Origin: Candidatus Omnitrophota bacterium
GTDB taxonomy: Bacteria > Omnitrophota > Gorgyraeia > 1-14-0-20-64-10
DNA length: 64,000 bases
Direction: 5' to 3'
Assembly (NCBI GenBank): GCA_016177405.1
Contig: JACOVG010000021.1
Span: 14,434-78,433, forward strand
Of the stretch, positions 30,267 to 64,000 are shown piece after piece; within the stretch, counting starts at the first letter, position 1; each line of letters begins with the position of its first letter. A program made the translations under genes and the position numbers. Below the pieces are notes generated by a model that was given only the letters and a program-made list of their open reading frames with translations, had not been told where the DNA came from and did not search any database.

Positions 30267-30275
30267 TTTGTCCTC

Positions 30276-30899
30276 CTACTCCAGCTTAAGATCATCCAGG
30301 TAAACCGTCCCCCTGCCCACACCGCCGGGGAAAAGGGTGCCTTCGAAGCAGATGGCGACGGAGGCCGTCTGCTTGTGATCCAGGAAGAAGGCCTCCACGG
30401 GAATGACGGCCTTCTGCCATTCCGCGGTGACCTTCCCGGCCGGCAGGTACTTCCCGATCGGTTCGGACTTCACGGAGTCCCCCACCTCGTCCCAATGGCG
30501 GTCGGCCATTCCCACCAGGAAGTTCTCATCGCCGGCGGCCCCCCTCACCCAAAAGGTGAGGCTCCGGTAGCCGGAGGCGTCGAAGTAGCGGCTGCCGCTC
30601 TTCAGCAGGGTATACCAGCCGCACCAGCCCCCGGAATCGTAAGGGCCGCCCCGCCCCTTCTTGTCGTACTTCAACATCAGGGAACCGGAGCCTTGATGGG
30701 CCGGGTCCTTCACCAAAAGGGCCAGCGACCGTGAGGGCTCTTTCAGGTAGGTGCTGGCGCGCCCGCCCAGCTTATTGACCGAAGCCCCCTCGAAGTCGTC
30801 AATCAACAGGGGCTCCGCCGCGAAAGCGGCGGTAAGCGGTAAGCAGTAAGCAGTAAGCAAAACAGCGGTCATCGCGAGCAATCTCTTTCTCATTCCCAT
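30276..30899 (-). CDS. Secreted single-domain protein carrying the recurrent CBM-like module; close paralog of 29553..30266
   Basis: PLLIDDFEGASVNKLGGRAS..., GGWCGWYTLL, LTFWVRGAAGDENFLVGMADRHWDEVGDSVKSEPIGKYLPAGKVTAEWQKAVIPV, GTVYLDDLKLE. Confidence 0.65.
   Translation of the reverse strand: MGMRKRLLAMTAVLLTAYCLPLTAAFAAEPLLIDDFEGASVNKLGGRASTYLKEPSRSLALLVKDPAHQGSGSLMLKYDKKGRGGPYDSGGWCGWYTLLKSGSRYFDASGYRSLTFWVRGAAGDENFLVGMADRHWDEVGDSVKSEPIGKYLPAGKVTAEWQKAVIPVEAFFLDHKQTASVAICFEGTLFPGGVGRGTVYLDDLKLE
30831..30858. repeat. Heptanucleotide tandem repeat (ggtaagc x2, agtaagc x2) in the signal-peptide codons of 30276..30899
   Basis: ggtaagcggtaagcagtaagcagtaagc, encoding LTAYCLPLT on the coding strand. 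Confidence 0.75.
30868..30886 (-). repeat. Truncated leader cassette copy (gtcatcgcgagcaatctc)
   Basis: Read from the sequence; it lacks the central hairpin. Confidence 0.5.
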
Positions 30900-34419: not shown

Positions 34420-34450
34420 CTTACCACAACCTCGACGCCGCCCTTTTCCG

Positions 34451-49900: not shown

Positions 49901-52900
49901 TGCCGCCGCCGATGATGACCGCCTTCTTCCAGCGATGTCCGAAGGCCTTCTCCCGTGGTTCCTTCATGTCCGCCAGATCCTGAAGTTTCTTGACCGCCGC
50001 GGCAGGATCGGTCAAGGAGACCTCGGCGGCCTGGAGACTTTCCTTGCTGGACGCCATGGAATCCCCCGCGAAGATCAGGGGGGTGTTCAGCTCGCCCACC
50101 ACCACCCGTTCCAGCTCCTCGCGGGCCTCTTTCCCGGCGCCAGTGATCAGAATCCCTTTCGCGCCGAAGCCGTTCTCCTGGTTCAGAAGCAGAAGGACCC
50201 GCAGGGCCGCCGGCAGGGTATCCTGGCGCCTGCCCTTGAGGCGCTCCGCGCTCTCGCGCTGTTGGGCCAACTTGGAAATCTTCAATTGAGAGAGGATTCC
50301 CGCGTCCAGCTCAAAGTAAACATCAAAACCCTCCTCCAGGGCGCGGCCAATCACCTGGCCGGCCTTTTCCATGCCGCCCAAGAGAGCCCCTCCGGGGCGG
50401 GCGGTCTTCTCGGCCCTCTGGGCCAGGGCCTGAAAAAGCTCCCCCTCCAGAGCCGGAATCCTCAAGGAGATCGAGGTCACCCCGCTCGCCCGCAGGTACT
50501 TGAGGGCGTACGTGAAGGCATCCGGATCGTCCGCCTCCTGAAGCTCCATCCGCGCCACCGTCTCCATCCGGCCGGACGCCGCCAAGCCGATCCTGTTCTG
50601 ACGCAGCACGCGCAAGGCCGCCGCCTCCTCCAGCCGCCCCTCGGCAAGCAGTCTCCCTTCCTTCTCTCCCGGCAGTCCCTGAAGGATCTTCCCGAATCTT
50701 TGCCGCGCCTCTCGGACAAGGTAAGGCCAGTATTGGGACACGACAGAGAGATCCGTGCCGGGACCCACCGATTCCTCCACATATCCCTCCGGGCCAAAGA
50801 GGCGGATGTTATAAAAGTTCACCCCCTGCACCAATTGTGGAAACGGTATCTCCACAGCCCCCTCTTTCTCCCCCGGCGGCATGTTGACCTGCCCCCATTC
50901 CTCCGGCTGAACCTTCTCACCGGAACCGCCGTAGCCCTTGCCGAATCGGACCGCCACGGCCGCGTTGCCGCCGCGGCTCTGGCGCCACGCCTTCAGCCAC
51001 CAGGGATCGTTGGGGTCTTCCACATAATCCCGCTCGACGGTCACGCGAAGAGAAAGCTTCTCGTCTACCGTGGGAACGTGGAGGTCGGCGCTGGTTCCCA
51101 GGACATTGGTCGTTAGAACCTCGGTCTTGCCGTCCTTCGCGCGGAGGATCTCCACCTTCTTCACCCGGAGGGCTCCTGGCGAGGAGAGAGTACTTTGGAG
51201 CTGGCGGATGGGCTTCAGCCAAATCCCCTCTTGCGCCGCCGGCCAGGCATCCAGCTCAAACCGGAACTTCCCTTCGGCCGTGTTGACAATCATCCTCATC
51301 AGGCGATGGGGAACAGCCCCGCCCACCGTTCCGGCCGCCTGCCCTTGGGCGAGACTCCTTCCGAAATCCCAGAACTTATCCCAGAAAGTCCTTGGCCTTG
51401 GCTTCTCAACCCGCTCCCAAAGACTGGACTCTTGGCTGTCGCCAATCATGAAATAGACAAAATCGGAGAAGTGGCCGGCCTGTTCGGAAAACTCCGGCGT
51501 CAAGGCCCATCCCTCCGGGCCGGCGATCACCCTCCGGCCAGGCATCCCCAGGGCCAGGAGGGCGCCGGTGCCGGTGATGTTCACCACAACACTGGGCGCC
51601 TGACTTTCTTCAACCACCTCCTTGAGCCTGGCCTCTGTTCCGGCAGGGTCCTTGGCAAATTCATCTTGCAGGGTAGCCGTGCGCTCTTGGAGGGCCGGCA
51701 TGAGATTCACCGCCAGCGCCATTCTCTCTTTCGGCACCCCGGGAAGCTGCACCTTCCCGAGGGAGGCGCCCATTTGATCCAGATCCGCCGCCGCCATGAC
51801 CACCGGAACGATTCGCCGATCCATCTCCTTCACGCCGCGCTCCTCCAGAACCTCGGAAAGAATCCGGCCAAAGGGATCCAGCTCGGCCGAGGGAATAAAG
51901 GTATGAAGCTTGAACTCCCAGGGAAACTGCAGGCGCTTGAGGGCCTCCAGGTGCCACTCGTACCAGCGCCAGGCCAAGCTCTTCAAAAGCTCCGGGTTTT
52001 TCGGCTGCCCATTCGCGTCGGCGGCCGAGGCCTCCTTCCACTCCGGCGTGGTCCAGATCCGGTTTCTCACGTAGGCCTGATCCCAGTCGAAATCGGGGTA
52101 GGCGAGGTAGGCCTCGACGTAATGGAGAAGAGCGCTGTCTCGTCCGGAGGGATGAACGCAGTCGGCCACATCCACCAAGGGGGAAACCTTGGCTCCCTTG
52201 GCGCGCGCGGTGTGAATATCCCGGACAAAGACCTCGTGGATCGCCCTCTTGTTCGGATAGGCCTCGAACCCTTTAAAATCGACGGCGGCCTCGGTTGCCA
52301 GCAGGACCCTTCCCTCAACCGCACCCACACCCTGGAAGATTCTCTCCTTGACTGCCTGACCGGCCAGATCCAGTCGAGCGTAATCCCAGATGGGCACCAC
52401 CAGTTTCCCTCTAGGGGCAACCTGGGGCGCCTCCCAGGTTTCCGCGGAATCCGCTCCTCCGGGCGCCCAGGCCCAGACGCGCGCCAGGTTTCCCATTATC
52501 TCGGAATTCACAGAGGGCCTGAACATGGTCCGGGGGACAATCCCCCGGCTGCGCTCTGGAAGGGTGCCCGCGAGGGCCGTCTCCCTGCCTTCCTCTGGCT
52601 GTTTGAAGATGATCTCCGCGTTCAGAACATCCGGATCCGGCTCTCCCTCCTCGAAAGAATCCAGAGCGAAGAACCTTATCGGCAGTTGATCCGGCGAGAA
52701 GGGATATTTGACTTCACCCTTGGTCACAATGGGATCCCCAGGCCCGGCCTGTCTCAAATAAATTGGGAACAGCCCTGGAACGAGAACTCCGGATTCGGGC
52801 GCGGCCTGATCCGACGGCTGTCCCTGAACCGGTTCGGCCGCGGCCCCATGGGAAAAACCGAGGAAGGCCGCCAGCCCCACCGCCGCCAGAGAAGCCCATT

Positions 52901-53957
52901 TCAAACCGCGGCGTGCGAACCTTTTCTGCTCCTCTTCCTCCCTGGCTTCTTCTTGGGCGCGCGCCTGCTCCAATTGACCGCGCCTGGCCAGGGCCTGCTT
53001 AACGGCGGGGATCTCAAGATAATGCCTGGCCACCCTCCCATAGGACCGGGGCGACTTCTCGAGCGCCAGCTGCAGCGCGTACCGGTCTTCCAAGCGAAGG
53101 GCAGCCGCCGCGGCGATACCCAGGTTAAAGCGATCGCTGAACCGCTCCATGAGGGGATCGTTGGTTGCCTGCACGGCCAATCGAACGCCCTGGCTCCAAC
53201 GGGACGGCTTGGCCTTGGACGGAACGGGGACCACGACGGTCAAATAGCCCAAGGGGGTGTTGGGTGACGACTTCTTCGAGGAAACCCCCTCCGCGATAAG
53301 CTCACCGACTACCTTGGGAGAATCAAAGGCGCCCAGAACCAAGAGGGTCACATTCACCCCTTTTTGGCGCAGTTGGGCAACCTTCTCCAGCGTCTCTCTC
53401 GTAATACCCGACGGCTCCAGAAGCGGCTCGCCGGCCTGCCGGTCCTCCTGCCAAGGAGTCCCAAGAGAGACAACAACTGCTTTATCAAATTTGCTTTCAA
53501 AGAGAAGGTATCCCTGCCGCTTGAAGGCGCGCGGCGCGGGCACCAAGAAAGCGGCGGAACGAGAGGGCTTGGGAACAATGTTTTCCTTGGGAGGCGGCTC
53601 GACCGTCGCCCCTCGCTTCACCCAGAAATTCACCGTCGGGCTGGAAACCGTCGGCTGCTTGGGTGAGGCAGACTCCGTTTGGACCGGGACATGAAGGGCC
53701 TCTTCCAGGCCGGATTTGACGCTGCCTGGGGTTGATGCTTCCGCCTGCTCGACACGCAGGTGGGTTTCCACGGGGACAGTCCCCGTTGCCCAGCCCGCGG
53801 GAAGGAGGGTGGTGACTGTGAAGGCGAAGGCGGTCGCGGCGGCTAGCCCCTTGAGGATCGGCTTAAAACGGGGTTTCTGGGAGGTCAGCAAGACTCCTCC
53901 ATCAGCTTCAGGAGAAGCTTTTTTAATCGTCCCTAAGAACTCTGTAAAGTTAAACAT
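40941..53957 (-). CDS. Giant polytopic membrane protein (4338 aa) with large soluble domains and a ~250-aa C-terminal coiled coil
   Basis: Continuous 13 kb ORF whose start overlaps the stop of giant 2 by 8 nt. There are several clusters of TM helices. Examples are GLKWASLAAVGLAAFLGF, WLPWGALLVPYLKWVVPALVVAHASPWIIAGAGLILGG...LIFPAFAAALFFLPQVVAGFVGAHALAIIGG, and the region ALTGLMVGGLAALFLGAGGG...GFPALGLGFALTISVGLGAVIAGLF. The coiled-coil region is ELQELREQMERAVQAARAREEALRQ...LEKENGELWALVGQLKQKARELEE. No enzymatic motif was confidently recognised. Confidence 0.7.
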   Translation of the reverse strand: MFNFTEFLGTIKKASPEADGGVLLTSQKPRFKPILKGLAAATAFAFTVTTLLPAGWATGTVPVETHLRVEQAEASTPGSVKSGLEEALHVPVQTESASPKQPTVSSPTVNFWVKRGATVEPPPKENIVPKPSRSAAFLVPAPRAFKRQGYLLFESKFDKAVVVSLGTPWQEDRQAGEPLLEPSGITRETLEKVAQLRQKGVNVTLLVLGAFDSPKVVGELIAEGVSSKKSSPNTPLGYLTVVVPVPSKAKPSRWSQGVRLAVQATNDPLMERFSDRFNLGIAAAAALRLEDRYALQLALEKSPRSYGRVARHYLEIPAVKQALARRGQLEQARAQEEAREEEEQKRFARRGLKWASLAAVGLAAFLGFSHGAAAEPVQGQPSDQAAPESGVLVPGLFPIYLRQAGPGDPIVTKGEVKYPFSPDQLPIRFFALDSFEEGEPDPDVLNAEIIFKQPEEGRETALAGTLPERSRGIVPRTMFRPSVNSEIMGNLARVWAWAPGGADSAETWEAPQVAPRGKLVVPIWDYARLDLAGQAVKERIFQGVGAVEGRVLLATEAAVDFKGFEAYPNKRAIHEVFVRDIHTARAKGAKVSPLVDVADCVHPSGRDSALLHYVEAYLAYPDFDWDQAYVRNRIWTTPEWKEASAADANGQPKNPELLKSLAWRWYEWHLEALKRLQFPWEFKLHTFIPSAELDPFGRILSEVLEERGVKEMDRRIVPVVMAAADLDQMGASLGKVQLPGVPKERMALAVNLMPALQERTATLQDEFAKDPAGTEARLKEVVEESQAPSVVVNITGTGALLALGMPGRRVIAGPEGWALTPEFSEQAGHFSDFVYFMIGDSQESSLWERVEKPRPRTFWDKFWDFGRSLAQGQAAGTVGGAVPHRLMRMIVNTAEGKFRFELDAWPAAQEGIWLKPIRQLQSTLSSPGALRVKKVEILRAKDGKTEVLTTNVLGTSADLHVPTVDEKLSLRVTVERDYVEDPNDPWWLKAWRQSRGGNAAVAVRFGKGYGGSGEKVQPEEWGQVNMPPGEKEGAVEIPFPQLVQGVNFYNIRLFGPEGYVEESVGPGTDLSVVSQYWPYLVREARQRFGKILQGLPGEKEGRLLAEGRLEEAAALRVLRQNRIGLAASGRMETVARMELQEADDPDAFTYALKYLRASGVTSISLRIPALEGELFQALAQRAEKTARPGGALLGGMEKAGQVIGRALEEGFDVYFELDAGILSQLKISKLAQQRESAERLKGRRQDTLPAALRVLLLLNQENGFGAKGILITGAGKEAREELERVVVGELNTPLIFAGDSMASSKESLQAAEVSLTDPAAAVKKLQDLADMKEPREKAFGHRWKKAVIIGGGRLSETVAQLEPLPTVGGDEQVQEDLFERLMVPTDEALLRQGAASPALVKAYAGSLLNGHRSFGDFSDALRDPQNDDHEKAKALARAWEEELARIADSPQKPRFVTDLEGFEEVFVGNMPSLPMVHAGWGFARVQGAAPSHQDAVEGEAVPVALQLTHHGSAEETLYRIVLTAYHHSTGRRYEWEAVVDLKKGHPRRIVLWLKDFPRGRLSWSAAALRWDLEGIRGRVSSFVTPERLLSRTQGIVEVVSPEAKPADSFPRDQIEEELEIFRKELGYWNGWREALGGAAGKPDSRQMKELLEDRFGLWARVVEQTAADGKASLTLVPKSKKEFRAALERSVEEQARKEKKPGEPLELAPEKPRDSYRGAMIRGWIFLLGSGALWLAWLSVRWALASLVYAAAHWRSRPPPRTPGAVSFRQVPSASTGDPHLTGLEEAAPVKIENLVAAKVYGIRQKEVARSGGRVERFRGLVEAGTVFNLPTWGFAKRSATMQSSNVPPPDKLPLPDDLAELGTFAQESVGRALTPAAPGRMAAQVPLGGGYVNDAWRQAVAEAIKAVDPAAQVAALQNGPIPASGWMDVQMALPPEVTADLMRKVKYLRRLLGAAMIRVNPATRRISVDHHFLQVGNIEELFARLYVESAKRLTPERRQGLWINQDLMAEMYGPVEEWIKKGVTAPPIHLDWRPWTVVQGAYKPENDKYRSSVKRGILWLVRWRLEKRDRPAMRKEKWGPGLMLRNWLPWGALLVPYLKWVVPALVVAHASPWIIAGAGLILGGRLTLMALFYLVSSVELALRAIPYFLGVLPMAAFGGEDRDGTLKSFSQKFHWAKYDLLVPLVVLWQVGGYTLSMMMRRFMDFVGERPNVEHPLALGAGLLAALLTVFIAWPTFGATILGVAGLAAFVFNILWAWEDQDAGRLLNLRWLIFPAFAAALFFLPQVVAGFVGAHALAIIGGTLLGVHLLPALAVWVWGLPRGILSVVHRWGFVSGAIRNINGFISVLGDSSHPDHEYAKRFLTWLTEDRRISDTLSPQAKAYAPNVRASDLQRALLDPANPANSIAKELLSFWMRSGHWTVFNHESAESRLTGILNKPKAEEKEPFKKKFLRTILDTLPSKLHGLTDVLFLVRDSSGAVMTLSEPETEWVNALDQKGRWYTGDILTKLREWAGYRLMFPLAELVHEKFYKTEEFTDLAERLMLSTERNAVASGLWRLMEDPYLEKWTGMGQSPPIIGIRPVDPARDGGLIRQLNTDVSPGFAGSDGRFITYLEGWSTPGLSLPYKVDTYHVNEKGEKVQGDGLRTVVQLLPSRTDYRFIMRDDPESLSKGMKLAALRGWQYMDSGRLALHRTGLEEPLRLAWPGPNEEQYEFPGETHVSVKRHLDVTLESYRGMAGDRAALHLELLADSPENRRGHDTSSSQLPAEDRLSRWWGTRVVRAILREAVTAASFFRLQGQGKALNTREADEAKEPVPAGLTRANIRGNPQAITAAEQAARGLLVGLKHHPFANVFLHTHVSEEISSQLELTHGTDTADPAWPYFRLLQIAVERPKAWGFRVKRYGREPEPVTLGGVIDELLGLSAGGLGEIVVNEYADEMNQRHQKGEPEIPFELYLRSLSPLHQDSGTLMAMLRDTRANTGARWGDILAGLHHRVGDTNFVRQWAQETGQTVPQAQAAMPDTQHFSDEFRQGRLHLYDVRDPGHRAVTGALTGLMVGGLAALFLGAGGGLAAGAIAGVATAFLTAWPPASGGGLFSGYRRAPRGLAVGVLSGVTLLGLAKFLGLAPAIWPTLPALGGVLGAMGLILAASVGVGMVGALVYLLAAADPLSRTPRRVFAGYAGLAASLGILFLAPSFWLAGSILFGIVSGLIAAKANLFLPSLWMTGSRQPILMGWLAAFIGFVLIPFGFPALGLGFALTISVGLGAVIAGLFRLLRASGPPYSRDIRILARLFGRTPNQFAGFWDSSTWQLKLGLPLAEGTGYFTKVPLWWRGGVIPPDAPPLTILQAIRILEVPPDLAPISAFNVLAWRRAYAILEQLLKAEDTLGGYEGVEEFRGITGGPLEIWYELVTGQRFRRRRGANPPGGPLPPAAAIFQQEMQHLSAELKQLDSALSRAAEFGLGEALRDANQRMFNLPIFTGDQSAHEGVLVTLDGYRHEVTVTGIARVAEVPGRSKFSVLIGQGPAAQAVTLTVDRDASVISDNAGNRYKDSFLSTPYHLQENLWGLKAFDTLQMRWPALAHGVSNLSNVLSGWTLSHLNFEWVNEKPGDSNAEGNYALLMEPDFLPEGRKALEKDLRETARLLSRPMAMGPSLGPPAQGSGTFDQLIGMTADQLRTHLDGVNTQLRASTGNKSMNDFMGGKYGPIEKLGDSQRDRAQRQQLAAQVATGVKPVLRLHLTQQLLRRMVRLKEALEAWDTEVAPVVARFRDHTVPELQKNKPLTPIDPWQGLAYAIADTRGAAPAGAVHSTVTLEQALEAAVHANPGLPSKDQILQALKSDPKAFFANFLDLVDELNKIPAMRQVLDEIRRSASGAGLEEGSEVLEKWTLGRWGVPQDLLDDPQRRQQAFGLLKDLRADQAAGWAEKPDEEKRSLLEAKLKEAGIWPALLPGEGPVPPKVEPVTAAPEAAPVDRAPELQELREQMERAVQAARAREEALRQADETTREWQVEFAELVEALEAREGLLLSAKEAQEELEREVLKLQNEAREEGNAHQEQVAKLEGQLAGVRRAIKEEIRKRQRAHQEEAAALKTQIGELQSDVRGHLEAQAAFEEAFNHQVKRWADLGDWEGEKIDLKKKVGGLEKENGELWALVGQLKQKARELEETSRKGEAGLEELSKRLGQLTALERAALGVLDSDGIFGFSVVNEGPRAKIFLFDNPQSWRLAPFIAQLAPVAVLTKTAEEAAALEELFEASGTPSTRYAVEALEWHRGNRALAEQALAEHFNRHLPAGLPGVILQTVPVVADIEALLRFLEGHGVVIYNLSGIAVGLEEVQTYLESLA

Positions 53958-54083
53958 CTTCGTCAGATGCGTCCCTCCTTTACAGATACCCCTACATCAG
54001 AAAGTTTACCTGATGCGCCGCCAATTATCAAATTTTATAACTAAGTATATTCTGCTACTAACTATTAGCCAGATCTCTCTTCG
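53958..54083 (-). promoter_or_regulatory. AT-rich intergenic island between giant genes 4 and 3, with a promoter-like TTGATA-17-TAAACT, an AAGGAGG RBS and a CATCAG/CTGATG hairpin
   Basis: The only AT-rich (~40% GC) segment in this part of the window. The minus strand reads ...TTGATAattggcggcgcatcaggTAAACTttctgatgtaggggtatctgtAAAGGAGGgacgcatctgacgaagaATG. Confidence 0.35.
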
Positions 54084-57000
54084 TTATACGCCCCTGCCGA
54101 TGACCGGCTCGGCGGCCAGCGCCTCAGTCAGCCGGTTCAACTCCTGGCGGATCGTCTTCTCCGGCACTCCTAAGGCACGGCCCAGCATCCAGAGAAAGTC
54201 CTGCAGGCCTCCGGTTACCGGCCTGGCGGTCACCGCCCGGCTAAGGAGTCTTGAGAGCTCACGGACGAGTGGATCGTCCTCGCCGACACCTACCACCTGA
54301 ACGGCAGCCCCAGCCGGAAGGGTGGCCGCCAGGGAGCTCATCTCCGGAACCACCGTCAGAGCGGGATTCCGCCGGGCCATGTCAAAGCTCTCCCAGCCGG
54401 CCCCCAACAGCCGCACCCGGGAGGCCAAGCCGGCCGGCAAAACAGCCAGGGCGTTGAGCGCTTCCTCGGAAATCCGATCCAGCAGGAGATCCGGCAGAAC
54501 CACGATCTCGTTCCTCTCAAGGATCTCAAGCTTGGCCTGCCACCGGATGAAGCCGGCGTGGGCCGCGATCACCGCGTCCGGCGTCCTGGACTCCTCACTC
54601 GGGGAGATCGGCCTGGGGTCAAACGGAACGCTCACCATCCAGTGGATCAGCTCCGCCGTCTGGGCGCTGGATCTGCCGGACGATTCGATCGTGGCGCCCG
54701 CCTTCTTCAGGGCCTCTTCGAGCTCCCGGCGTCCGGCCTCTTTGCCGAGAGCCGCCAGGGCCCGGCTTAGCTCCGACTTGCCGTTGGCCAGCCGCATCGC
54801 CTGAACCGGCACGCTGATCCTGTCGAACGAGATGTCTTGTACCCCCTGGCCGCCGGGCAGGATCCTTCGGGTGACGCGCGTGGCGACCAGGTGCTTGCCC
54901 TTCTCCTCCAGGCCGGCCAGCTCCAGAAGGTGGGAGCCGTCACGCTGCCTGGAGATCCCCATGGGCCGAAGCTGGGATAGATGGATGACGGCTGGGCCCC
55001 CTGTCCATCCTCGTTGGGCCATCAGCCGACGCATCGTCTCGGGGTTGACCCGTTCCTCAAGGCCGGCCCACTGCAAGGAGGCGCCCTCTCCCATCTCCAG
55101 GGGATTGAGGGAAGGCACGCCGGTCGCACGGAAGGTTCGCCCCTGGAACTTCCCCTTCAGGAAGACGTCCCGGGTGAAGGCGCTGGTGCGGCCCACGTAA
55201 AGCTCGGCCGTGATGCCATAACCATTCAGAATCCGGCGCAGATGCTCATTGATCTCGGCGCAGTCAAGGGCCCGCTTCCTTCGGCCGTCCTTCAGGTAAA
55301 GGACCAGCTTGCCCTGGCCGTCCTGCCGGTAGACGCCGCCATCCTGCTGGAGGGAATCTTCCCAGCCGTACCACTGCTCCGACAGCTCCTGGACCGAGCT
55401 CAAGAATTCGCGGAACGATTGCTCGGTCACCCCGCCGGAAAGGTAGACGCCGGCCAATTTCTTCATCTCCCGGTTAAGCCAGCTTGGGTCGCCGCGCTCC
55501 TCTAAAATGACCGCCGTCGGTTGGGGCCGCGGCGCCCCGACGCCAAACAGTTCAACGTAGGCCTCGGAGAAGGAAGCGCCTGCCTCCACCAGATCCCCCA
55601 GCCGATTCGCGATGGAATCGTAGCCGTCCCCGGCTGGGAGCCAGCCGTTGGGGCCGGCGGCCGCCTCCATCAGAACCCGCGCCATTTCCTGGGCAGATGG
55701 ATAGGGGTCGGGGCGCTGCTCTTTCAGCTCGGCCACTATTTCATCAAAGTACCTCAAGACAAGACCCCTCCTTCTCTCCTCGCCAACCTTCTTGAGCTCT
55801 GTCAGGGCATAGGCAAACCGTTGTCTCAACTCTCCCATGAAGGCCTTTCGGGAGGGCTTCCCCTTCCTGTCCCGTTTCTTGCCGCTTAAGTCTCCCAGGC
55901 CCCGGGGAGGAGGCGTGCTTTCCACCACGGGCGGACGCTCCATCACCCCCAGAAGGGCCCGGATAACCTGGTACGCCTTGGGTTTCACCACGTTGGCCAC
56001 ATTGCCCGGCTGCGGCGCGGCCAGGACCGACCGCCCAATGGCGGCCGGAGCCGGCAGGATGGCCGGAACCGCCGGCGCCGGGGCAAGCGGCGCCAACCCG
56101 GCGGCCGAAACCATCTTTCCGTCGTCGAACTGGAAGATCGCCGGCCCCTGCACCCAGAGGGGCCGCGCCGGCCGATCATGAACCCGCGCCATTCTCTGCC
56201 GCAGCTCCTCGCCGACAGCCATGAGGGTGACGGCATGCCCAAAGGCCGGGGTCTGAAGGTGGGCGACGGCCGGGCCGGTCATCCCCTCCGCCAGGAAGTA
56301 GAGGGTCTGCTGTCCATCCGAGCCGGTGTCGGCGTACCGTGAATAGACCGCCCCTGGTACGGTGCCGAAGGGACCGCCCTGCTCCACAAGATCCACCGAC
56401 TGGGAGAGTGGGACCGGCGCCTGCCAGAGATCAAGTCGGTAGTCGTGCGTCGCCTTAAGAAGCGGCGCGATGAGGGCATAGGGCACCCGGACCGCCGGTT
56501 TCTCCATTCCGGCCAGGCGGTAGAGGAGCGACTTGCCTCCCCGCTCGCCCTCGACCGCGTGCAGGAGAAGCAGGATGGTGAGGGTACGCGCCATCTCCTC
56601 CACCTGATCCGGCTGGCTCCGAACCATGGAGCCGATCTCAAGCCCTTGGCGCAGCTCCACATAATGAAGAGCCGCCTCCAGGCCGCAGTTGAGCGCCGCG
56701 AGGGTAAGCGGCTGGCGCATCGCCCCGGCCACCCCCTCCACCACGCCTGGCGGAAGCACCGGCATCCCAAGAATCTTCGGCAGTTTCTCCGGCCGCAGGA
56801 CCTCGGCCACCGCCCGCTCGATCACCCCTGCCCGCCCCGCCGCCGGCGGCTCCATCACCGCGGCCGCCCCCTCCTCCAGCCCGGCCGCCGCGCCGGCGAG
56901 CTTGGCTTGGTATTCGGTAAGCTTCGACATCGAGTCAAGTTTAAGGATGAATTCGTCGGCGTGCTGGTTCGGCCCATACTTATTCTCCTGACCAGCGTGA

Positions 57001-60000
57001 TGGACGACCGCGCCCGCTGGAATGGAGTCGCCGTAGAGCTTCTTCATCCAGTCATTCTGCATGAGAGGACCGGGTTTTCCGACCTCGCCCTGCGGCTCGC
57101 CCTTCACCTGCTCGTCGTATCCGATCTTCCGGGCGTGAGCCGCCACCTGGGCAGCGCCCAGCTTCTGGACCTGGTCCAGCCAGGCCAGCCGCACCGTCTG
57201 GCCCGCCCCCTTGATGCCCCGCTTCTGCGCCTCCGAACCCCAGAAGGAGAGATAATAAGTTCCCTTCAGCTCATCCGCGGTGAAGCTCTTGACGAATTCA
57301 TCCGGAGCGGCCGGGTGGCCGATCGTGCTGGCCAGGATCTGGCCGGTCGCCTTATCCACCGCGATCAGATGGACGCTGTCCGCAGCTTCATGAATTCTCT
57401 TCCAGCCCTCCACGGTGTTGTAAAGCGCGAACCGGCTGATTCCGGCATCCAGGGCCTGCTCCGTTTCAGGGGCATCGGCCTCCAGCATCTTTTGGCCCTT
57501 GAGAAGGGCAAGGGCTTTCTTCAAGTCGCCGCCGGCCGCTTGAAGGACCTGCTCCTTGTAGGCAGGCACCTGGCGCCGGGCAAACTCCCAGGCCACATTC
57601 TGCAAGCCGCCCGCGGCCAGAAGAACCTCCCAATCGGCCTTCTTCTGGCCGCCGGCGGCCAGGTGGAACTCAACCGTGACCGGATTGCCGTCCTTGTCCT
57701 TGGTATCCAGCGTATCCACAACCTTCCCAAACCGCTCCGCCGCGGGGGCGTAGCGGTAATCCTGGGCACTCGCCGGCTCAAACTCGCTCCAGAGCGCCTT
57801 GCCGGCGAGATCCTGCATCAGGGCCTCCGCCGCCTCCGGGGTCTTGGCCTGCTGGAGGCCGCCCAAAAGGTCTTGGCCGGAGTCTCTGGCCGCTTGATCA
57901 ACCGCCCGCAGGTTGTGGTGCACGCGCACCCAATAGGCCTCGTCGGTATTCCCCGCCATCAAATTCTCCAAATCCTCGCGGATGGCCCGCAGAGCCGAGT
58001 CGCCCTCCGCCATTCTTGCCAGACCGGCTTCGGCCTCGAACAGCCCCTGGGCGGTTTCGAAGCGGCCGGGGCGCGCGCCCAGGATGTTCTTGGCAACAAC
58101 TCCTCGCGCCACCCTTCCAATCCAGCTTGTCCAAAGCGACCGGGTATCCTTGGCCGCTTCTTGTCCCAAGGCCCGCGCGGCCTGGGCGAAGCGGTCCCGG
58201 TGCCGGGTCTCCTCGGCATCCCGCGTGGACTGGGCATGGGTCCGGGCCCACGGGCGTTCCCATCCCCTAAGTTTCTCGAGGTGCGGGATCAGCGCCCCCA
58301 AGAGCTTCTCCAGCGGCTTCACGTATTGGTCATAGCGCTTGGGATCCGCGGCCTTGAGGCGATCCAGATACCCTGCCTCGAATCCGGGCTGGGCAATCCG
58401 TTCCGCGCGGCTGCGGGCGGTGGCATCGGACAAAACGGCGTAGGGACCGCTGTTGAAGGAACCGCCTTCCGCCAGGCGAAGTCCGATGGTGATATTGCCC
58501 GGATGGGCTTGGGCATCCCGCGGCGGCGCCACGATGCCGCCTGTGACGGAGCCGGAAACCTCGCTCACAAAGACCGCCAGGCCCTGCGGCTGAAGGAACT
58601 TGCCTGTGAGGGTCTCCAGGAGCGGCTGGAGATCGGTTACCCGGAAATTCCCATCCGGCAGTTTCAGCGCGTCGGCCGCTTCTTTGGGCAGGCCGGCCAG
58701 GCGGACCGCCTCCATGAGCGATTTCTGCAGTTTGGCCTTCCCGTTTTCTGAAAGGACGGCATCCGCTTTACCCTCGACGGATCCGAGCGCTTCCTTCACC
58801 GCCTCCTCAACGGCCGGCACCACCACAAAGGCCTGCGGGATCTTGCCCTGAACCATCTGATCCAGAACCTTGTTGAGAGCCAGCAGGGATTCCTGATCCA
58901 CGCCGGGATCCTGGGTCCACTGGGCCAGCATACCCTTCATCGTTCGAATGGCCGCCTTGACCGCCAGGGTTTCGGGTGTCTCCTGGACCGTCTGGGTGGC
59001 CGCCTCTTCAGCCCCCGCCTTCGCCAGATGAGCTGTTGGAGGCCGCTGCAGCCAGACCATCTCTCCCTTCGGCGTCTGGGCCAGGAGATTCAGCGCCTCT
59101 GAACCGAGGGAGGCGGCGCCCGGCTTGGCGCCCTCCTTGGCCAACAGGTGAATCGCCCTGGCCACCGGCAGGATGGCCTGATCCACCTTGAGGTCGGCGG
59201 GCTTGTTTTCATCGTCGTCGCCTGAGCCGCCGCTCGCGGCATCCTTCTTGGGCGGCGCCGGCATCATCCGCCTTAAGACATCGCCTATCGTCCGAGCACG
59301 CTGGAGGACCGCCGTTTCTTGACCATCCCGAATCTCCGCTCCGCGGGGAGCCGCTTGCCCCTGCACCTGCAAAACGCTTGAATCTTTAGCGAGCGTCAGC
59401 GTTAATCCCAGCGCTTCGTTCTCCAGGTGAAGAGTCTCGTTGCTGGAGGCCCTTACGGCGGCTCCCGCCACGAAGGCATCCAACGGCAAGCCGGTCTGCT
59501 GTTCCACCTTCGCCCGGGCATCCGGCGACAGCGCGAGCAACCGCCGGGCGTCATTACCCTCGATCTTCCGGGCGGACATCGCCTGCTTCAACCGGTCATT
59601 GGTCTGCACCCCTTGCTCTCCGGCGGATGGCCGGTAGCTTATCCCCTTCCAAGAATCCTTCCTGGCTTGGGAGACCGCTAGGGCAAACCGGTCAATCTCC
59701 TGCCGGTCGGCAGGGGTCAGGTAATGATACTCGTCGTTGGACTCGATCGCCTGCGCCACCAGCGCCACAACCGTCTCCTGATCGAGCGCGCCCAAGAAGG
59801 CCTCAACCGGCATGACCTTCGCCACGAAGAAGAAAGCCCCAAAGGCGGCGTGAAACTCCGCTTTGTCAAACAGCCGGTGGATCGTCCAGTTGGCCTGCTG
59901 CTCATTCCTGGCGTGCCGCACCAGGACAAGCCGCTCGGAAAGCTTGGCCAGATGCTGGACGTTATCGGGATCGATCCGCCCGCCCAGCTCCCCTTCCAGC

Positions 60001-63000
60001 TTCTCGATCTCCGCCCAGATCTTATCCGGCTTCATCCCCTCCGCGTGCTGATCGAGTTTATGGACATGGAGAAGCACATTCCGTTCGAGTTCGGAGTTCC
60101 GGTCGGTCATCCGATCCCGGGAGATGGCAATGGAGCGGGCCGCCTGCAAGGCCTGCAGGCCGTGCGTCAACTCGTGCGGGACCAGGAAGGTGGCGTAGAG
60201 GGCCGCCAGACTCTTTTGCTGAAGCTGTCCTTTGGCATTCACCCACTGGACCGGGAGGTTGGCCAGACCCGACTTCTGAAGGGCATGGAGGATCTTGGAA
60301 TCCACGGTGATCACCAAGGTCCCGTCCGGATCCTGATGAATGGCCGCGGCGCCCACCTTCGCCTCGAGATCACCCACCGCTACCCGGATGAGCGGCTTCC
60401 GGGAAGTCCCCTGGGGAGCAAGAAGCTCCTCTGGATCAACCCCCTCCAGCCCGAAGGTTGCCAAGAGTTCCGGCCGGGTCCGAAGCAGGGCTTCAACGAC
60501 CGCCTGGGCGAGATTTCGGACCTCCTGGGTCGCCTCCTCGCCTTCTGGAATGGCCTGCTCTGCTTGAGAAAGTTGCTCAATCCCAAAGAGACTCTCCGCC
60601 ATGGTCGGCGCTCGGCCTGTGGTTTCCGCTGTGGTAACACGCTCATCCATTTTGTCAACCATGGTTCTAAGCAAGTCCGCGTAAGCCCGATTGCCGGAGC
60701 CAAGCTCATTGAGTTTCGCCGCGCGCTGATCCGCGCCCAAACGCCAGACGGCACCCGCGTCCCCGATGAGCCGCTGAAGCGGATTCTCCCCGGGCTGGAG
60801 GTTCAAACTGCTCAAGTCAACCCCCGTGGCTTGCGCGATAACCTTCTCCACGACCGGGGCCGCTATCCTCTCCGCGGCTTGGGCCTGGGGCGAGTTCGGC
60901 TCGGCCAGCGGCGCGCTTCCGGCAAGCTCGGCATCTCCAATAACCTGCTGCGCTTCGAGTAACTGTCTGACCTCTTTATCCATCCCCCAAATCTGGTTCT
61001 TCATCGCCGCCTGTCGGGCTTCCCGGACAGCCTCGCGCCGCTCGCCCCGGCTGCCGGCGGGATCGTGCGCCGCCTGACCCCTGGCCAGCGCCAGGGAAAG
61101 CTCACGCCCCTCTGGATCGGCAAGAAGCCCGGGATCCGCGGGGAGAAGCTGAAGGAAGAGCCCCTGCTGAATCGGGGTGAGGTTTACCTGTTCAAGCAAG
61201 CGGGCGCGAATGTCCTTGGCGTTGAACAGGACAGCGCCCGGGACAATCGCCGCCTCGAAGTCGTGGCTAAGGGCCGCGTCTGCCTTGCCACCTTTGGCTG
61301 CCTCCCCAGCCAGCATCTGATGGACCAACGACTTGCTCCACCCGGCCGGATCCTCAACGGTGGGGGAAACCTGCTTCACCAGCAGGGTCAAGAGCTGGAC
61401 AAGCTGGTCGGCATTGGCCTGGGGCGCCAACCGCTTGGCCTGCGCCACCAACTCTGAAGCCACTACTTTCAGCAGATGCGCCTTTCCGGCAATCGCCTTC
61501 TTAAGCTCTTCTTGTTGAGATTCAGTCAGCCCCTCTCCGGTCACACCCAGATTCCGCAGGCGGCTTTGGACCCATTCCACCAACGGTTGAGGAAGGCCTT
61601 TGTGCCAGGCGCTTGGATACGCGACGATGGACTGAACGATCTGGCCAGCCGCCTCCTGCGCGGTTTCTTTGTTCCTCATGGCCTCCGCGGCAGTCAGAAG
61701 CGCCTGGCCAGCACCCGGAGCCATGAGGCGCGGGAGTCTTTCCTTAAATTCACCCATCCATTTTTCGACCGCCTGGGGATCCTCCGGCTCTTTCTTGTCC
61801 TGGAAGGCGCGGGCTTTTTCCTCCGCCTTTTTCAGAACCTCCTTCACATTGCCATTCTGCTGGCGGTCCACCTCGTGCTGGAGGGTCTGGATGGCCGAGG
61901 CCAGCCGCTGGTTGGCCTTCAGCGGTGGCTCTTTTTTCTGTTTTTCTTCATCCACCTGGACAATCTGTTCCAGCGTACCCAAGGGTTTATCCAGGTAGTC
62001 GGCCAGCTCTTTTACGCCGGCGAGCTGGCCTGTCCCCTGGGCAGCCCAGATCAGATCCTTCCAAGCAGTCAGAAGATCGACGCCAGGCACGTTCGCCCAC
62101 CGGGCAAGCCTCGGTTCCACCAGGGCCAACAGCACTTCCGGATTCACCCCGTTGGCCCGGGCAAGCTCCTTTACCTTCTCGGGCGTCCAGATCTTCAGTT
62201 TTTGCTCGAGCTGTTCCTTCAGATGGGCTTCCTCGGTCTTCACCTGCCCGCTCTCAATCTCAAGGACGGCGCGATCCTGCGGGTTGGTCGTCTCCTTGGC
62301 CCGCTCGCCAAGCTCCTTGGCCGACGTCTCGACCCGTTCCAGATCCACGCCGATCTCGCCCAGCTCAAGGAAGTCACGCAGATCACCGCTTATCGCCGCG
62401 GAATTCTTCTCAACACCCTGGGCCGCCAATCCCTGAATGCCGGCCGGCTCGGTGAGAGCCCTGCCAATGGCCTCGGCCCCAAAGAGCGGGGCCTGCCCCT
62501 GATGAACCCCCTTGAAGAAATCAACCACCTGGGCCGCCTGCCGGTATCTCTCCGGATCGGCAAAGGAGCTGCTAAGCGGATTCAGGAAGTTCTTCAGCGC
62601 GAAGAGGAAGAGATCGCCTTCGGCGGCGGTATATCCCGCGTCGCTCGCCAGGGTCGTTATCCAGCCCTTGAGGGCGGAATCCTCTTCGTCCTGGTATTGA
62701 TGGTGAAGGGCCAGCACCATCCTGCCGGTGAGGGTCAACTGGCCGGCGGCTCCCACCATGTTGTTCGCCGTAAGGTAAGGCGCCAGCGCGGCGCTCTTCG
62801 GATCGGCCTTGGCCTGATCGATCGTGCGCGCGGTCCCGCTCAACCTGGCCTCCAGCGGTTTGGAAAGAGGCCCGGCGCGGCGGGAGGTGAGCCAATTGGC
62901 GGTGCGCCTGGCCCAGACCACCGCCTCGGCAACGGTGCCTATCTCCAGCGCCCCTCTCGTTTCCGTGCCGGCCTCAACGCTTCGAGCCAGGGAGTCGTAT

Positions 63001-64000
63001 CGGGTGAGATCATCGGTCATGAACAACTTGTCCACCTGTTTGGCAACCTCACCCGGCAGGAGGCTCTTCAAGCGGCCAATGGTGCCGTCCTTGCCGTCCT
63101 TCATCTTCCCCAGGAGGGACTCACGCCAGCCCTGATAGATCCCCTCGTAATTATCCAATCCTCGAAGGGTCTCTCCGGTGATCGCCTCCTCCCCATAAAG
63201 GGACTGATCGTTCAGGAACTGCCGGTATTGCGCCTCCACCACCTGGCGCGCGGCGGCGTTGCCCTTGACCTCCCTAAGCAGCGCCTTGAAGGCGTTGTTC
63301 GTCATCCGGCGCAGGACACGCTGTGAGAAGGTGTGGACCAGAGACTCGGAGTTCTCCTTCACCCGCCTGACTTCACCCAGGAGCTTGACCCGCTCGTTCA
63401 GGGTGAGCGGCTGGCTTGGATTCTTCCACTTCTTCAAGAGGTCCAGGTTGTCTTGAACATTCCGCTGGGCTGAAGGTAAGCCCCCTCCTTCCAGGCGGTT
63501 CTTCTCCAACGCGAAGATTCCATCGAGGTCCCCCGCCAGGGGCTGCTGTTCCTTGGGGCTTCCCAGGAACTCCGTCTCCAGCTTGGCCAGCTCCCTCCGG
63601 CCGTAGAAGAGGTGCGCCTCGCCGTTGGCGGTCTGGCCTTCCACGCGGTTCACCCTTCGGATCATCTGGGCCAAATCCAGAGAGGAGTACTCCTCCGCGT
63701 GGACCGCGATGAGATCGGTCCCGGCGGGGGCATCGGTCGGGTCAAAGGCCTGCTTGGCCCGGCGGTTGGTGATCAAGAGCTGCCGGCCTTGGCCCAGCTC
63801 CCTGCCGGCCTGAAGGAGCTTGCCGGCATCCGGGGTATCCAGGACCACATGGATCTTGTCAAACGCCCGAAGATCCTCCATCCCCTGAATCATCCCTTTC
63901 TGAACCTTGCCGCTTTCCGGCAGGATGATGATGAGAGACTTGTCTGGGTTCTTCGCCTTCCAGGCCCTGACAAAATTGATAACGTCCAGGGCGGCGTCGA
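54084..64000 (-). CDS. Giant multidomain protein (at least 3300 aa in the window; N-terminus beyond the window end), predominantly alpha-helical, with an SF2-helicase-C-like segment at the window edge
   Basis: The track gives 54084..63893 from an internal Met. The frame stays open to position 64000 with no stop (...DAALDVINFVRAWKAKNPDKSLIIILPESGKVQKGMIQGMEDLRAF...). Residues encoded near 63.6-64.0 kb resemble a helicase C-terminal domain (LIAVHAEEYSSLDLAQMIRRVNR, cf. motif VI QxxGRxxR). A single HExxH (FLVPHELTHGLQ) occurs near 60.1 kb. No TM segments were seen. Confidence 0.65.
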   Translation of the reverse strand, partial: DAALDVINFVRAWKAKNPDKSLIIILPESGKVQKGMIQGMEDLRAFDKIHVVLDTPDAGKLLQAGRELGQGRQLLITNRRAKQAFDPTDAPAGTDLIAVHAEEYSSLDLAQMIRRVNRVEGQTANGEAHLFYGRRELAKLETEFLGSPKEQQPLAGDLDGIFALEKNRLEGGGLPSAQRNVQDNLDLLKKWKNPSQPLTLNERVKLLGEVRRVKENSESLVHTFSQRVLRRMTNNAFKALLREVKGNAAARQVVEAQYRQFLNDQSLYGEEAITGETLRGLDNYEGIYQGWRESLLGKMKDGKDGTIGRLKSLLPGEVAKQVDKLFMTDDLTRYDSLARSVEAGTETRGALEIGTVAEAVVWARRTANWLTSRRAGPLSKPLEARLSGTARTIDQAKADPKSAALAPYLTANNMVGAAGQLTLTGRMVLALHHQYQDEEDSALKGWITTLASDAGYTAAEGDLFLFALKNFLNPLSSSFADPERYRQAAQVVDFFKGVHQGQAPLFGAEAIGRALTEPAGIQGLAAQGVEKNSAAISGDLRDFLELGEIGVDLERVETSAKELGERAKETTNPQDRAVLEIESGQVKTEEAHLKEQLEQKLKIWTPEKVKELARANGVNPEVLLALVEPRLARWANVPGVDLLTAWKDLIWAAQGTGQLAGVKELADYLDKPLGTLEQIVQVDEEKQKKEPPLKANQRLASAIQTLQHEVDRQQNGNVKEVLKKAEEKARAFQDKKEPEDPQAVEKWMGEFKERLPRLMAPGAGQALLTAAEAMRNKETAQEAAGQIVQSIVAYPSAWHKGLPQPLVEWVQSRLRNLGVTGEGLTESQQEELKKAIAGKAHLLKVVASELVAQAKRLAPQANADQLVQLLTLLVKQVSPTVEDPAGWSKSLVHQMLAGEAAKGGKADAALSHDFEAAIVPGAVLFNAKDIRARLLEQVNLTPIQQGLFLQLLPADPGLLADPEGRELSLALARGQAAHDPAGSRGERREAVREARQAAMKNQIWGMDKEVRQLLEAQQVIGDAELAGSAPLAEPNSPQAQAAERIAAPVVEKVIAQATGVDLSSLNLQPGENPLQRLIGDAGAVWRLGADQRAAKLNELGSGNRAYADLLRTMVDKMDERVTTAETTGRAPTMAESLFGIEQLSQAEQAIPEGEEATQEVRNLAQAVVEALLRTRPELLATFGLEGVDPEELLAPQGTSRKPLIRVAVGDLEAKVGAAAIHQDPDGTLVITVDSKILHALQKSGLANLPVQWVNAKGQLQQKSLAALYATFLVPHELTHGLQALQAARSIAISRDRMTDRNSELERNVLLHVHKLDQHAEGMKPDKIWAEIEKLEGELGGRIDPDNVQHLAKLSERLVLVRHARNEQQANWTIHRLFDKAEFHAAFGAFFFVAKVMPVEAFLGALDQETVVALVAQAIESNDEYHYLTPADRQEIDRFALAVSQARKDSWKGISYRPSAGEQGVQTNDRLKQAMSARKIEGNDARRLLALSPDARAKVEQQTGLPLDAFVAGAAVRASSNETLHLENEALGLTLTLAKDSSVLQVQGQAAPRGAEIRDGQETAVLQRARTIGDVLRRMMPAPPKKDAASGGSGDDDENKPADLKVDQAILPVARAIHLLAKEGAKPGAASLGSEALNLLAQTPKGEMVWLQRPPTAHLAKAGAEEAATQTVQETPETLAVKAAIRTMKGMLAQWTQDPGVDQESLLALNKVLDQMVQGKIPQAFVVVPAVEEAVKEALGSVEGKADAVLSENGKAKLQKSLMEAVRLAGLPKEAADALKLPDGNFRVTDLQPLLETLTGKFLQPQGLAVFVSEVSGSVTGGIVAPPRDAQAHPGNITIGLRLAEGGSFNSGPYAVLSDATARSRAERIAQPGFEAGYLDRLKAADPKRYDQYVKPLEKLLGALIPHLEKLRGWERPWARTHAQSTRDAEETRHRDRFAQAARALGQEAAKDTRSLWTSWIGRVARGVVAKNILGARPGRFETAQGLFEAEAGLARMAEGDSALRAIREDLENLMAGNTDEAYWVRVHHNLRAVDQAARDSGQDLLGGLQQAKTPEAAEALMQDLAGKALWSEFEPASAQDYRYAPAAERFGKVVDTLDTKDKDGNPVTVEFHLAAGGQKKADWEVLLAAGGLQNVAWEFARRQVPAYKEQVLQAAGGDLKKALALLKGQKMLEADAPETEQALDAGISRFALYNTVEGWKRIHEAADSVHLIAVDKATGQILASTIGHPAAPDEFVKSFTADELKGTYYLSFWGSEAQKRGIKGAGQTVRLAWLDQVQKLGAAQVAAHARKIGYDEQVKGEPQGEVGKPGPLMQNDWMKKLYGDSIPAGAVVHHAGQENKYGPNQHADEFILKLDSMSKLTEYQAKLAGAAAGLEEGAAAVMEPPAAGRAGVIERAVAEVLRPEKLPKILGMPVLPPGVVEGVAGAMRQPLTLAALNCGLEAALHYVELRQGLEIGSMVRSQPDQVEEMARTLTILLLLHAVEGERGGKSLLYRLAGMEKPAVRVPYALIAPLLKATHDYRLDLWQAPVPLSQSVDLVEQGGPFGTVPGAVYSRYADTGSDGQQTLYFLAEGMTGPAVAHLQTPAFGHAVTLMAVGEELRQRMARVHDRPARPLWVQGPAIFQFDDGKMVSAAGLAPLAPAPAVPAILPAPAAIGRSVLAAPQPGNVANVVKPKAYQVIRALLGVMERPPVVESTPPPRGLGDLSGKKRDRKGKPSRKAFMGELRQRFAYALTELKKVGEERRRGLVLRYFDEIVAELKEQRPDPYPSAQEMARVLMEAAAGPNGWLPAGDGYDSIANRLGDLVEAGASFSEAYVELFGVGAPRPQPTAVILEERGDPSWLNREMKKLAGVYLSGGVTEQSFREFLSSVQELSEQWYGWEDSLQQDGGVYRQDGQGKLVLYLKDGRRKRALDCAEINEHLRRILNGYGITAELYVGRTSAFTRDVFLKGKFQGRTFRATGVPSLNPLEMGEGASLQWAGLEERVNPETMRRLMAQRGWTGGPAVIHLSQLRPMGISRQRDGSHLLELAGLEEKGKHLVATRVTRRILPGGQGVQDISFDRISVPVQAMRLANGKSELSRALAALGKEAGRRELEEALKKAGATIESSGRSSAQTAELIHWMVSVPFDPRPISPSEESRTPDAVIAAHAGFIRWQAKLEILERNEIVVLPDLLLDRISEEALNALAVLPAGLASRVRLLGAGWESFDMARRNPALTVVPEMSSLAATLPAGAAVQVVGVGEDDPLVRELSRLLSRAVTARPVTGGLQDFLWMLGRALGVPEKTIRQELNRLTEALAAEPVIGRGV

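Follow-up and report, generated by a model that had tools for sequence, protein, structure and literature searches.

A giant orphan protein of Candidatus Omnitrophota with a putative, highly divergent helicase-type NTPase core beside a polytopic membrane giant

Giant genes are abundant in Planctomycetota (PMC12673574), and divergent ATPase domains have been described on the proteins that such genes encode. West-Roberts et al. (2023, bioRxiv 10.1101/2023.11.21.568195) report divergent SecA-DEAD-like ATPase domains on giant Omnitrophota proteins of the envelope, and divergent SecA-DEAD-type domains have been reported on giant proteins of the Planctomycetota-Verrucomicrobiota-Chlamydiota (PVC) bacteria (10.64898/2026.06.07.730766). 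Here we analyse a stretch of 64,000 nucleotides (nt) from a contig of a Candidatus Omnitrophota bacterium, hereafter the window, which has a G+C content of ~0.63 and carries four giant open reading frames (ORFs), all on the minus strand. Our subject is the fourth of these, giant 4, which runs off the edge of the window. We propose, with a probability of roughly 0.5, that the window holds the C-terminal ~70% of an orphan protein of about 4,700 residues with a divergent superfamily 2 (SF2) NTPase core, acting as an NTP-driven partner of the membrane giant whose gene adjoins its own. This proposal draws on comparison of giant 4 with its single detected relative, a protein of 5,117 residues that we call P0001.

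The locus resembles the Omnitrophota SecA-DEAD-like giants in its PVC-related lineage, in the tandem arrangement of giant genes, in the putative, highly divergent SF2-type ATPase on a giant protein, and in the association with transmembrane and extracellular carbohydrate-related giants. It differs from them in that neither giant 4 nor P0001 has a Pfam match to SecA_DEAD or PPXD, in that the giant bearing the putative ATPase has no transmembrane region, the membrane part being a separate gene, and in that the ATPase would lie in the N-terminal third of the protein and not after C-terminal anchors.

Translation of the minus strand over 54084-63998 gives 3,304 sense codons and a single stop at the 3' end (54084-54086), and the frame is open at the window edge; residue numbers for giant 4 count along this open frame from the edge. 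The list of ORFs starts giant 4 at ATG 63893, the codon for residue 36 in this numbering, with nothing better than a badly spaced GAAAGGG ahead of it. An exhaustive HMMER search with residues 1-1200 of giant 4 against 1.84 billion cluster representatives returned exactly one match, P0001 (E 2.4e-172, 38% identity, query 20-1058 against target 1398-2437). The homology already starts at residue 20 (nt 63941), ahead of Met36, and therefore Met 63893 is not the start; an internal start at this position is rejected. The first-pass annotation, made from the sequence of the window, had read the frame as open past Met 63893 to the edge, and both the translation, which meets no stop, and the homology to P0001 upstream of this Met agree with it. 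The peptides that it quoted are also present, LIIILPESGKV at residues 22-32 and LIAVHAEEYSSLDLAQMIRRVNR at residues 96-118. Because the alignment begins at residue 1398 of P0001, the window probably lacks about 1,400 N-terminal residues, and full-length giant 4 would probably measure about 4,700 residues, as a single gene.

P0001 is encoded on a 49-kb contig of GCA_964372575.1, a metagenome-assembled genome labelled uncultured Planctomycetia bacterium. The two proteins are collinear throughout, the window part of giant 4 corresponding to P0001 residues 1398-5115 at 40-76% identity. Identity is ~40% in the divergent first 2,400 residues of giant 4, whereas in its last ~900 it reaches 66-84%. 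On the contig of the relative (its locus is L001 in the coordinates below), the gene order is a giant of >2,741 residues, a gene of 849 residues, P0001, and two ORFs of 847 and 3,496 residues. Apart from this contig, no further relatives were found in GTDB species genomes, JGI metagenomes or IMG/VR, and neither plasmids nor phages contained a relative of giant 4 (tblastn to both; megablast to plasmids). An exact 40-mer from the end of the window was absent from the collections of genome and metagenome contigs. As judged from sequence homology, the giant 4 family is so far known from two genomes.

The window part of giant 4 is itself poor in recognizable features. Scans against Pfam, NCBIfam and PADLOC assigned no family, a sequence search of the first 300 residues against the PDB gave no match, and in the PDB sequence searches as a whole, which also covered P0001, a match to polyubiquitin over 20 residues was set aside as a repeat artefact. 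Neither internal repeats nor paralogy to the other giants was detected at E < 1e-3. Walker A and DExD/H motifs are absent from the window part, as are hydrophobic segments, and the protein is probably cytoplasmic, without a signal peptide. Residues 50-125 of P0001 (L001 10001-10400) contain two marginally hydrophobic stretches (Kyte-Doolittle ~1.6), which could be a membrane hairpin fixing P0001 to the inner membrane; in giant 4 this part falls outside the window.

The evidence for an NTPase core comes from the part of P0001 that precedes its homology to giant 4. There, motifs I, II and III occur in SF2 order, all within the 520 residues before the part homologous to the window edge. Motif I is a Walker A sequence, AASGKT, within AEAASGKTLGY at residue 935. 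Motif II is NLTIADEFH at residue 1059, 124 residues past motif I and with the hydrophobic strand NLTIA in front, and its DEFH is the sole DE.[DH] in the 5,117 residues of P0001. Motif III is LLVGSAT at residue 1333, 274 residues past motif II owing to an insertion of ~270 residues. In 5,000 composition-preserving shuffles of P0001, motif I followed by motif II at helicase-like spacing was found in 1%, and the ordered set I-II-III in none of the 5,000, figures that are indicative only, the pattern having been defined post hoc.

Profile matches in the motif I region of P0001 are to helicase families only, and they are confined to the ~60 residues in which the Q-motif and Walker A lie [Pfam DEAD, E 0.0021, 18.3 bits against a cut-off of 26; Pfam ResIII, E 0.013, 15.9 bits against 22.5; the top three of NCBIfam, dinG_rel, YoaA and DinG, E 0.007-0.02, 11-15 bits against cut-offs of 548-680; PADLOC type IV DinG, E 7.5e-5; PDB 8s35_M, a DEAD/DEAH box helicase, E 1.2]. 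We also ran hhalign against Escherichia coli helicase sequences. The homologues of E. coli DinG that were retrieved were all 87-100% identical to DinG, the named ones being enterobacterial, and were unusable as a diverse profile. A profile of DinG and YoaA gave a probability of 56-62% (E ~1e-4), a five-member DEAD-box profile gave 17-22% (E ~1e-3, at motif I), and SecA gave E 0.03 at motif I only; non-SF2 controls, namely the superfamily 1 (SF1) helicases Rep and UvrD, Rho, an ATP-binding cassette (ABC) ATPase and CyaA, gave E 0.06-0.6. With an insertion of ~230 residues taken out of the P0001 query beforehand, a relaxed, low-confidence hhalign path sets DEFH on DEAD, GSAT on FSAT, KSAIVVV on motif IV and QLLNRVNR on HRIGRTGR.

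The spacing of the motifs can be compared with that of known enzymes. From I to II, from II to III and from III to VI, respectively, the distances are 124, 274 and 158 residues in P0001, 108, 31 and 144 in RhlE, 191, 211 and 193 in E. coli DinG, and 104, 182 and 179 in E. coli SecA. The III-VI distance in P0001 compares with 141-144 residues in RhlE, RhlB and RecQ. Once the insertion is removed, the order and spacing of motifs I-VI are similar to those of the DEAD-box core (RhlE, RhlB, DeaD, SrmB, DbpA), to which hhalign also points at motif I. P0001 differs from this core in having DEFH in place of DEAD, the 270-residue insertion, no Helicase_C match and a motif VI without its glycine. From these sequence features, the P0001 core resembles an SF2 NTPase in which a large domain separates motif II from motif III.

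The segment of giant 4 at the window edge, residues 20-135, would supply the second RecA-like lobe of such a core. It shows alternating beta and alpha elements and is 46% identical to P0001 residues 1398-1513, which start 65 residues past GSAT. Two short elements stand out within it. The first, LLITNRRAKQAFDPT, is a near-invariant, motif V-like strand and loop (ILITNSRVKEAFDPT in P0001), which the low-confidence hhalign path places at DEAD-box motif V. The second, QMIRRVNR, is a motif VI-like Q-x3-R-x2-R sequence that reads QLLNRVNR in P0001, so that the glutamine and both arginines are conserved in the two proteins and the glycine of QxxGRxxR is replaced. The same path sets the whole segment on DEAD-box motifs IV-VI, with QxxxRVNR on HRIGRTGR. 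A PHROGs search with the segment gave weak matches to an exonuclease family and to one family of unknown function (E 0.065-0.29).

The first-pass annotation had noted a resemblance of the window edge to the C-terminal RecA-like domain of helicases. Position, spacing and QxxxRVNR speak for it, but the segment taken alone has no significant similarity to a helicase; the resemblance is best described as a correct guess that the window alone could not justify, and the support stems from the relative. The helicase head that was postulated on this basis is partly supported, through that single homologue: Walker A, DEFH and GSAT do occur upstream in P0001 and in the right order, but the profile matches are sub-threshold and limited to motif I, and the Walker A/B and DExH motifs expected of such a head (AASGKT and DEFH) are those of the relative.

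To account for these observations, we propose the following organization. By homology with P0001, the missing N-terminal part of giant 4 would end in a highly divergent, DExH-type SF2 NTPase core, whose lobe 1 (Walker A, DEFH, the inserted domain of ~270 residues and GSAT) would lie just beyond the window. Residues 20-135 would form lobe 2, its motif VI-like QxxxRVNR keeping both arginines. There would follow ~1,100 poorly conserved residues with no detectable domain, then a conserved island carrying an HExxH, which is perhaps a zincin-like metal site, and last a strongly conserved C-terminal module of ~900 residues. NTP hydrolysis would serve as a motor or remodelling engine, and giant 4 would work with the adjoining polytopic membrane giant and hence with the secreted giant downstream of it. 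Such an arrangement would parallel the SecA-like ATPase modules fused to giant Omnitrophota envelope proteins.

Several results weigh against this proposal. Every profile match in P0001 is below its curated cut-off and ~60 residues long, and Walker A, DEFH and GSAT are read in P0001 only. The window-edge segment on its own has no helicase match in Pfam, NCBIfam, PADLOC or the PDB, and in Smith-Waterman comparisons with E. coli RhlE, RhlB, RecQ, DinG, SecA and UvrB it scores z < 1 against shuffles. Models of Helicase_C, Helicase_C_2 and SecA match neither lobe 2 of P0001 nor the window segment (Pfam at E <= 10). An AlphaFold2 model of the P0001 core, built on a two-sequence alignment with the window segment, has a mean predicted local distance difference test (pLDDT) score of 37; its alternation of beta and alpha elements is compatible with tandem RecA-like lobes, but the model is unusable, and Foldseek found with it just insignificant, generic alpha/beta folds. 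With regard to the partnership, the link of the ATPase to giant 3 consists of adjacency in two genomes, and a promoter-like, conserved spacer between the two genes suggests that giant 3 may be transcribed separately.

Giant 3 lies directly downstream of giant 4 and has 11 hydrophobic segments in two clusters together with a hydrophobic N-terminal anchor; an exact look-up of its sequence found no record. A single ORF in the window, it is split in the relative into the ORFs of 847 and 3,496 residues downstream of P0001 (L001 25533-35354), to which it is 73-84% identical, a level of conservation that most of giant 4 does not approach. In both genomes, giant 4 and giant 3 are neighbours. The C-terminal module of giant 4, which has no match to a Pfam or other family, to a PDB sequence or to a known fold, contains an insertion of ~100 residues (residues ~2701-2800) that is absent from P0001, and P0001 has an insertion of ~530 residues directly upstream of the module. 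Constraint is strongest in the membrane giant and in the last ~900 residues of giant 4. The spacer shares a conserved stretch (…TTATAAAA..TTTG.TA.TT…) with that of the relative (L001 25355-25532), overlapping a match to a sigma-70-like promoter, and this stretch may have a regulatory role for the gene of the membrane giant. On the other side of giant 3, its ORF overlaps by 8 nt that of giant 2, whose N-terminus resembles a signal peptide. Hence the earlier description of exported and membrane giants in tandem with giant 4 is borne out by a polytopic giant 3 with its anchor and by the N-terminus of giant 2. The 'energised machine' to which that description led is an idea drawn from the adjacency to the membrane giant that the two genomes share.

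The HExxH of giant 4 was another feature singled out in the first-pass annotation, as a single motif at ~60.1 kb that could mark a zincin-like site. The peptide, FLVPHELTHGLQ, is confirmed, and its HELTH is not only the one HExxH in giant 4 but the only one in all four giants, against 0.07 predicted from composition for giant 4 and ~0.29 for the four; the motif by itself is only mildly unexpected and is weak evidence. The surrounding conserved block has as its counterpart in P0001 KSLGALYATFLIPHEITHDLQAIQSAR (…FLIPHEITHDLQAIQSAR), with 21 of 27 positions identical and HEITH keeping H, E and H, and the region, with a local identity of 0.68, ranks among the best-conserved 2.4% when the divergent first 2,400 residues are scanned in windows of 31. 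A two-sequence AlphaFold model of the region (pLDDT 45) predicts a beta-beta-alpha-beta-beta unit followed by a long helix that bears the HExxH, a predicted topology compatible with a zincin. On conservation, the motif passes the test that the first-pass annotation had set for it, being kept in P0001 within a conserved island; neither a third ligand nor a match to a zincin family was found.

A working metallopeptidase site of the zincin type, used for example in self-processing of the giant or of its partners, is on these grounds possible but doubtful. In its favour, the only HExxH of the four giants falls in one of the most conserved blocks of a divergent region, and it is predicted to sit, as in zincins, on a long helix after a small beta unit; farther downstream, numerous conserved Glu, His and Asp offer candidates for the third ligand. 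None of these can be assigned as the ligand, however, and a metzincin is ruled out, because HELTHGLQALQ has no third His of HExxHxxGxxH. Moreover, searches of Pfam, NCBIfam, PHROGs and the PDB with the region matched no peptidase family, Foldseek finds nothing with a model of such low pLDDT, and the retention of three residues in a 68%-identical block between two sequences is weak evidence. Compared with minimal metallopeptidases of the gluzincin type, which pair HExxH with a downstream Glu, giant 4 shares the HExxH in a predicted long helix after a small beta unit and the conserved acidic and His residues downstream, but it differs in having no family match, no assigned third ligand and no confident fold.

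Turning to the ATPase, the reading that survives best beside our own is that of a genuine helicase of the DinG/XPD (Rad3) lineage within a giant protein, acting on DNA or RNA in repair, defence or a mobile element, with the context of envelope giants being incidental. Models of the DinG family are the best in three libraries and in hhalign, and DinG, YoaA and the CasDinG of type IV CRISPR systems give the best-scoring models over the stretch FxxxxxQRxM...LAIxAxxxxGKTLxY of P0001. There is further likeness in the DExH-type motif II and in the large domain between motifs II and III, which stands at the position of the Arch domain, the II-III spacing being 274 residues against 211 in E. coli DinG, although no homology of the P0001 insertion to the Arch domain is detectable. 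Against this, the similarity is confined to the Q-motif and Walker A stretch, in sub-threshold matches of ~60 residues, and DEAD_2 (PF06733) and Helicase_C_2 (PF13307) have no match in the helicase region of P0001. Lobe 2 is shorter than in DinG, with a III-VI spacing like that of DEAD-box proteins and RecQ (158 against 193 residues). There are no cysteines in P0001 935-1059, that is from motif I to motif II, and so the core has no iron-sulphur (Fe-S) cluster. Some members of the DinG/XPD family, CasDinG among them, likewise do without the four-cysteine Fe-S cluster domain. The core is also embedded in a protein of ~5,000 residues that has no other recognizable domain, and its context is not DNA-related: no defence-system model matches any of the giants beyond coiled-coil noise, relatives on plasmids, in phages or among viruses are lacking, and the synteny with the membrane giant is conserved. 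We consider this reading unlikely, and its special case of a mobile-element or defence helicase, to which the first-pass annotation had drawn a loose analogy, is rejected for want of supporting context, of matches and of any relative on plasmids, phages or viral contigs.

A protein-translocation ATPase similar to SecA, in which the ~270-residue insertion resembles the preprotein-binding domain and which drives export or insertion of the neighbouring giants, is in our estimate improbable. It has precedent in the giants of PVC bacteria, and the neighbourhood would suit it, giant 3 being a polytopic membrane protein and giant 2 starting with a sequence that resembles a signal peptide. The location of the insertion would also suit it, since SecA carries its preprotein-binding domain (PPXD) at the II-III position, where DinG/XPD proteins carry the Arch domain, and the II-III distance in E. 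coli SecA is 182 residues. The sequences, however, do not point to SecA: SecA_DEAD (PF07517) and SecA_PP_bind (PF01043) have no Pfam match in the helicase region of P0001 even at E <= 10, the hhalign match to E. coli SecA (E 0.03, at motif I) is weaker than those to DinG or the DEAD-box profile, and motif II is DEFH and not DEVD.

It is equally hard to credit that the segment at the window edge is merely an alpha/beta domain of the generic Rossmann type, or that the SF2 core is a degenerate, dead relic serving as a scaffold only: the segment is indeed not significantly similar to any helicase, Foldseek on a poor model returns methyltransferases and GTPases as readily, and the glycine of motif VI is lost, but an ordered Walker A, DEFH and GSAT lie immediately upstream in P0001 at helicase-like spacing, and the residues of catalytic type, GKT, DE and both arginines of motif VI, are present and conserved.

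The features of the window are collected in Table 1. Carbohydrate-related genes elsewhere in the window are giant 1, secreted proteins with domains similar to carbohydrate-binding modules (CBM), an ABC sugar transporter and a ROK regulator. The run of secreted CBM paralogues looks like the expansion of a carbohydrate-binding family between giants. The region of giant 1 has a G+C content of 0.56-0.59, compared with 0.63-0.65 around it.

Table 1. Positions of giant 4, its parts and other features in the window.
Feature	Positions	Strand	Description
Giant 4	54084..64000	(-)	3' part of gene, 3,304 codons + stop; frame open at window edge
Giant 4, residues 20-135	63594..63941	(-)	alternating beta/alpha; proposed lobe 2 (RecA-like) of the putative divergent SF2 core
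LLITNRRAKQAFDPT	63732..63776	(-)	residues 75-89; motif V-like strand and loop
QMIRRVNR	63645..63668	(-)	residues 111-118; motif VI-like
Conserved block KSLAALYATFLVPHELTHGLQALQAAR	60135..60215	(-)	carries HELTH, nt 60162-60176, residues 1275-1279
C-terminal module of giant 4	54087..56798	(-)	~900 residues; conserved in P0001
Giant 4 - giant 3 spacer	53958..54083	(-)	AT-rich; promoter-like site 54031-54003, AGGAGG ribosome-binding site
Giant 3	40941..53957	(-)	4,338 residues; polytopic
Giant 2	34451-40948	(-)	392-residue NAGPA-like region, 29% identical to that of giant 1
Giant 1	13911-21974	(-)	ARMT1-like damage-control phosphatase, DUF4922 and NAGPA (phosphodiester glycosidase) domains
Secreted paralogues, then CBM9/CBM30 protein	29553-32125, 32083-34641	(-)	paralogues of 237, 207 and 411 residues, CBM30/CBM11-like; CBM9/CBM30 protein of 852 residues
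Small secreted protein	26629-27174	(-)	~seven D-x-D/N-G-K-P-D repeats, reminiscent of calcium-binding repeats
ORF of 761 residues	6320-8605	(-)	ABC sugar-transport solute-binding domain fused to permease domain
Neighbouring permease	5028-6362	(-)	N-terminal CBM30-like domain

Giant genes have long been noted in Planctomycetota and related PVC bacteria, where they are functionally opaque. The family of giant 4 and P0001 looks like a very rare orphan on the theme of a giant PVC protein with a divergent SF2 ATPase. In a much bolder version, which we regard as a long shot, giants 4, 3 and 2 together with further giants upstream would form a hitherto undescribed apparatus that spans the envelope in a Planctomycetia-related lineage. 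Its power would come from an orphan DExH-type ATPase, to which a metalloprotease-like module and a docking domain under strong constraint would be fused, and it would represent a motor class unrelated at the family level to SecA or the known secretion ATPases. The rarity of the family marks giant 4 as dark matter, and, the evidence being thin, its value is that of a lead and not of a discovery. The lead does come with experimental handles, namely the Walker A lysine, the glutamate of the DExH motif and the glutamate of the HExxH, and with a testable partner in the adjoining membrane giant. Through these handles, one could learn what such clusters of giant genes do, and whether they are ATP-driven machines of the envelope.

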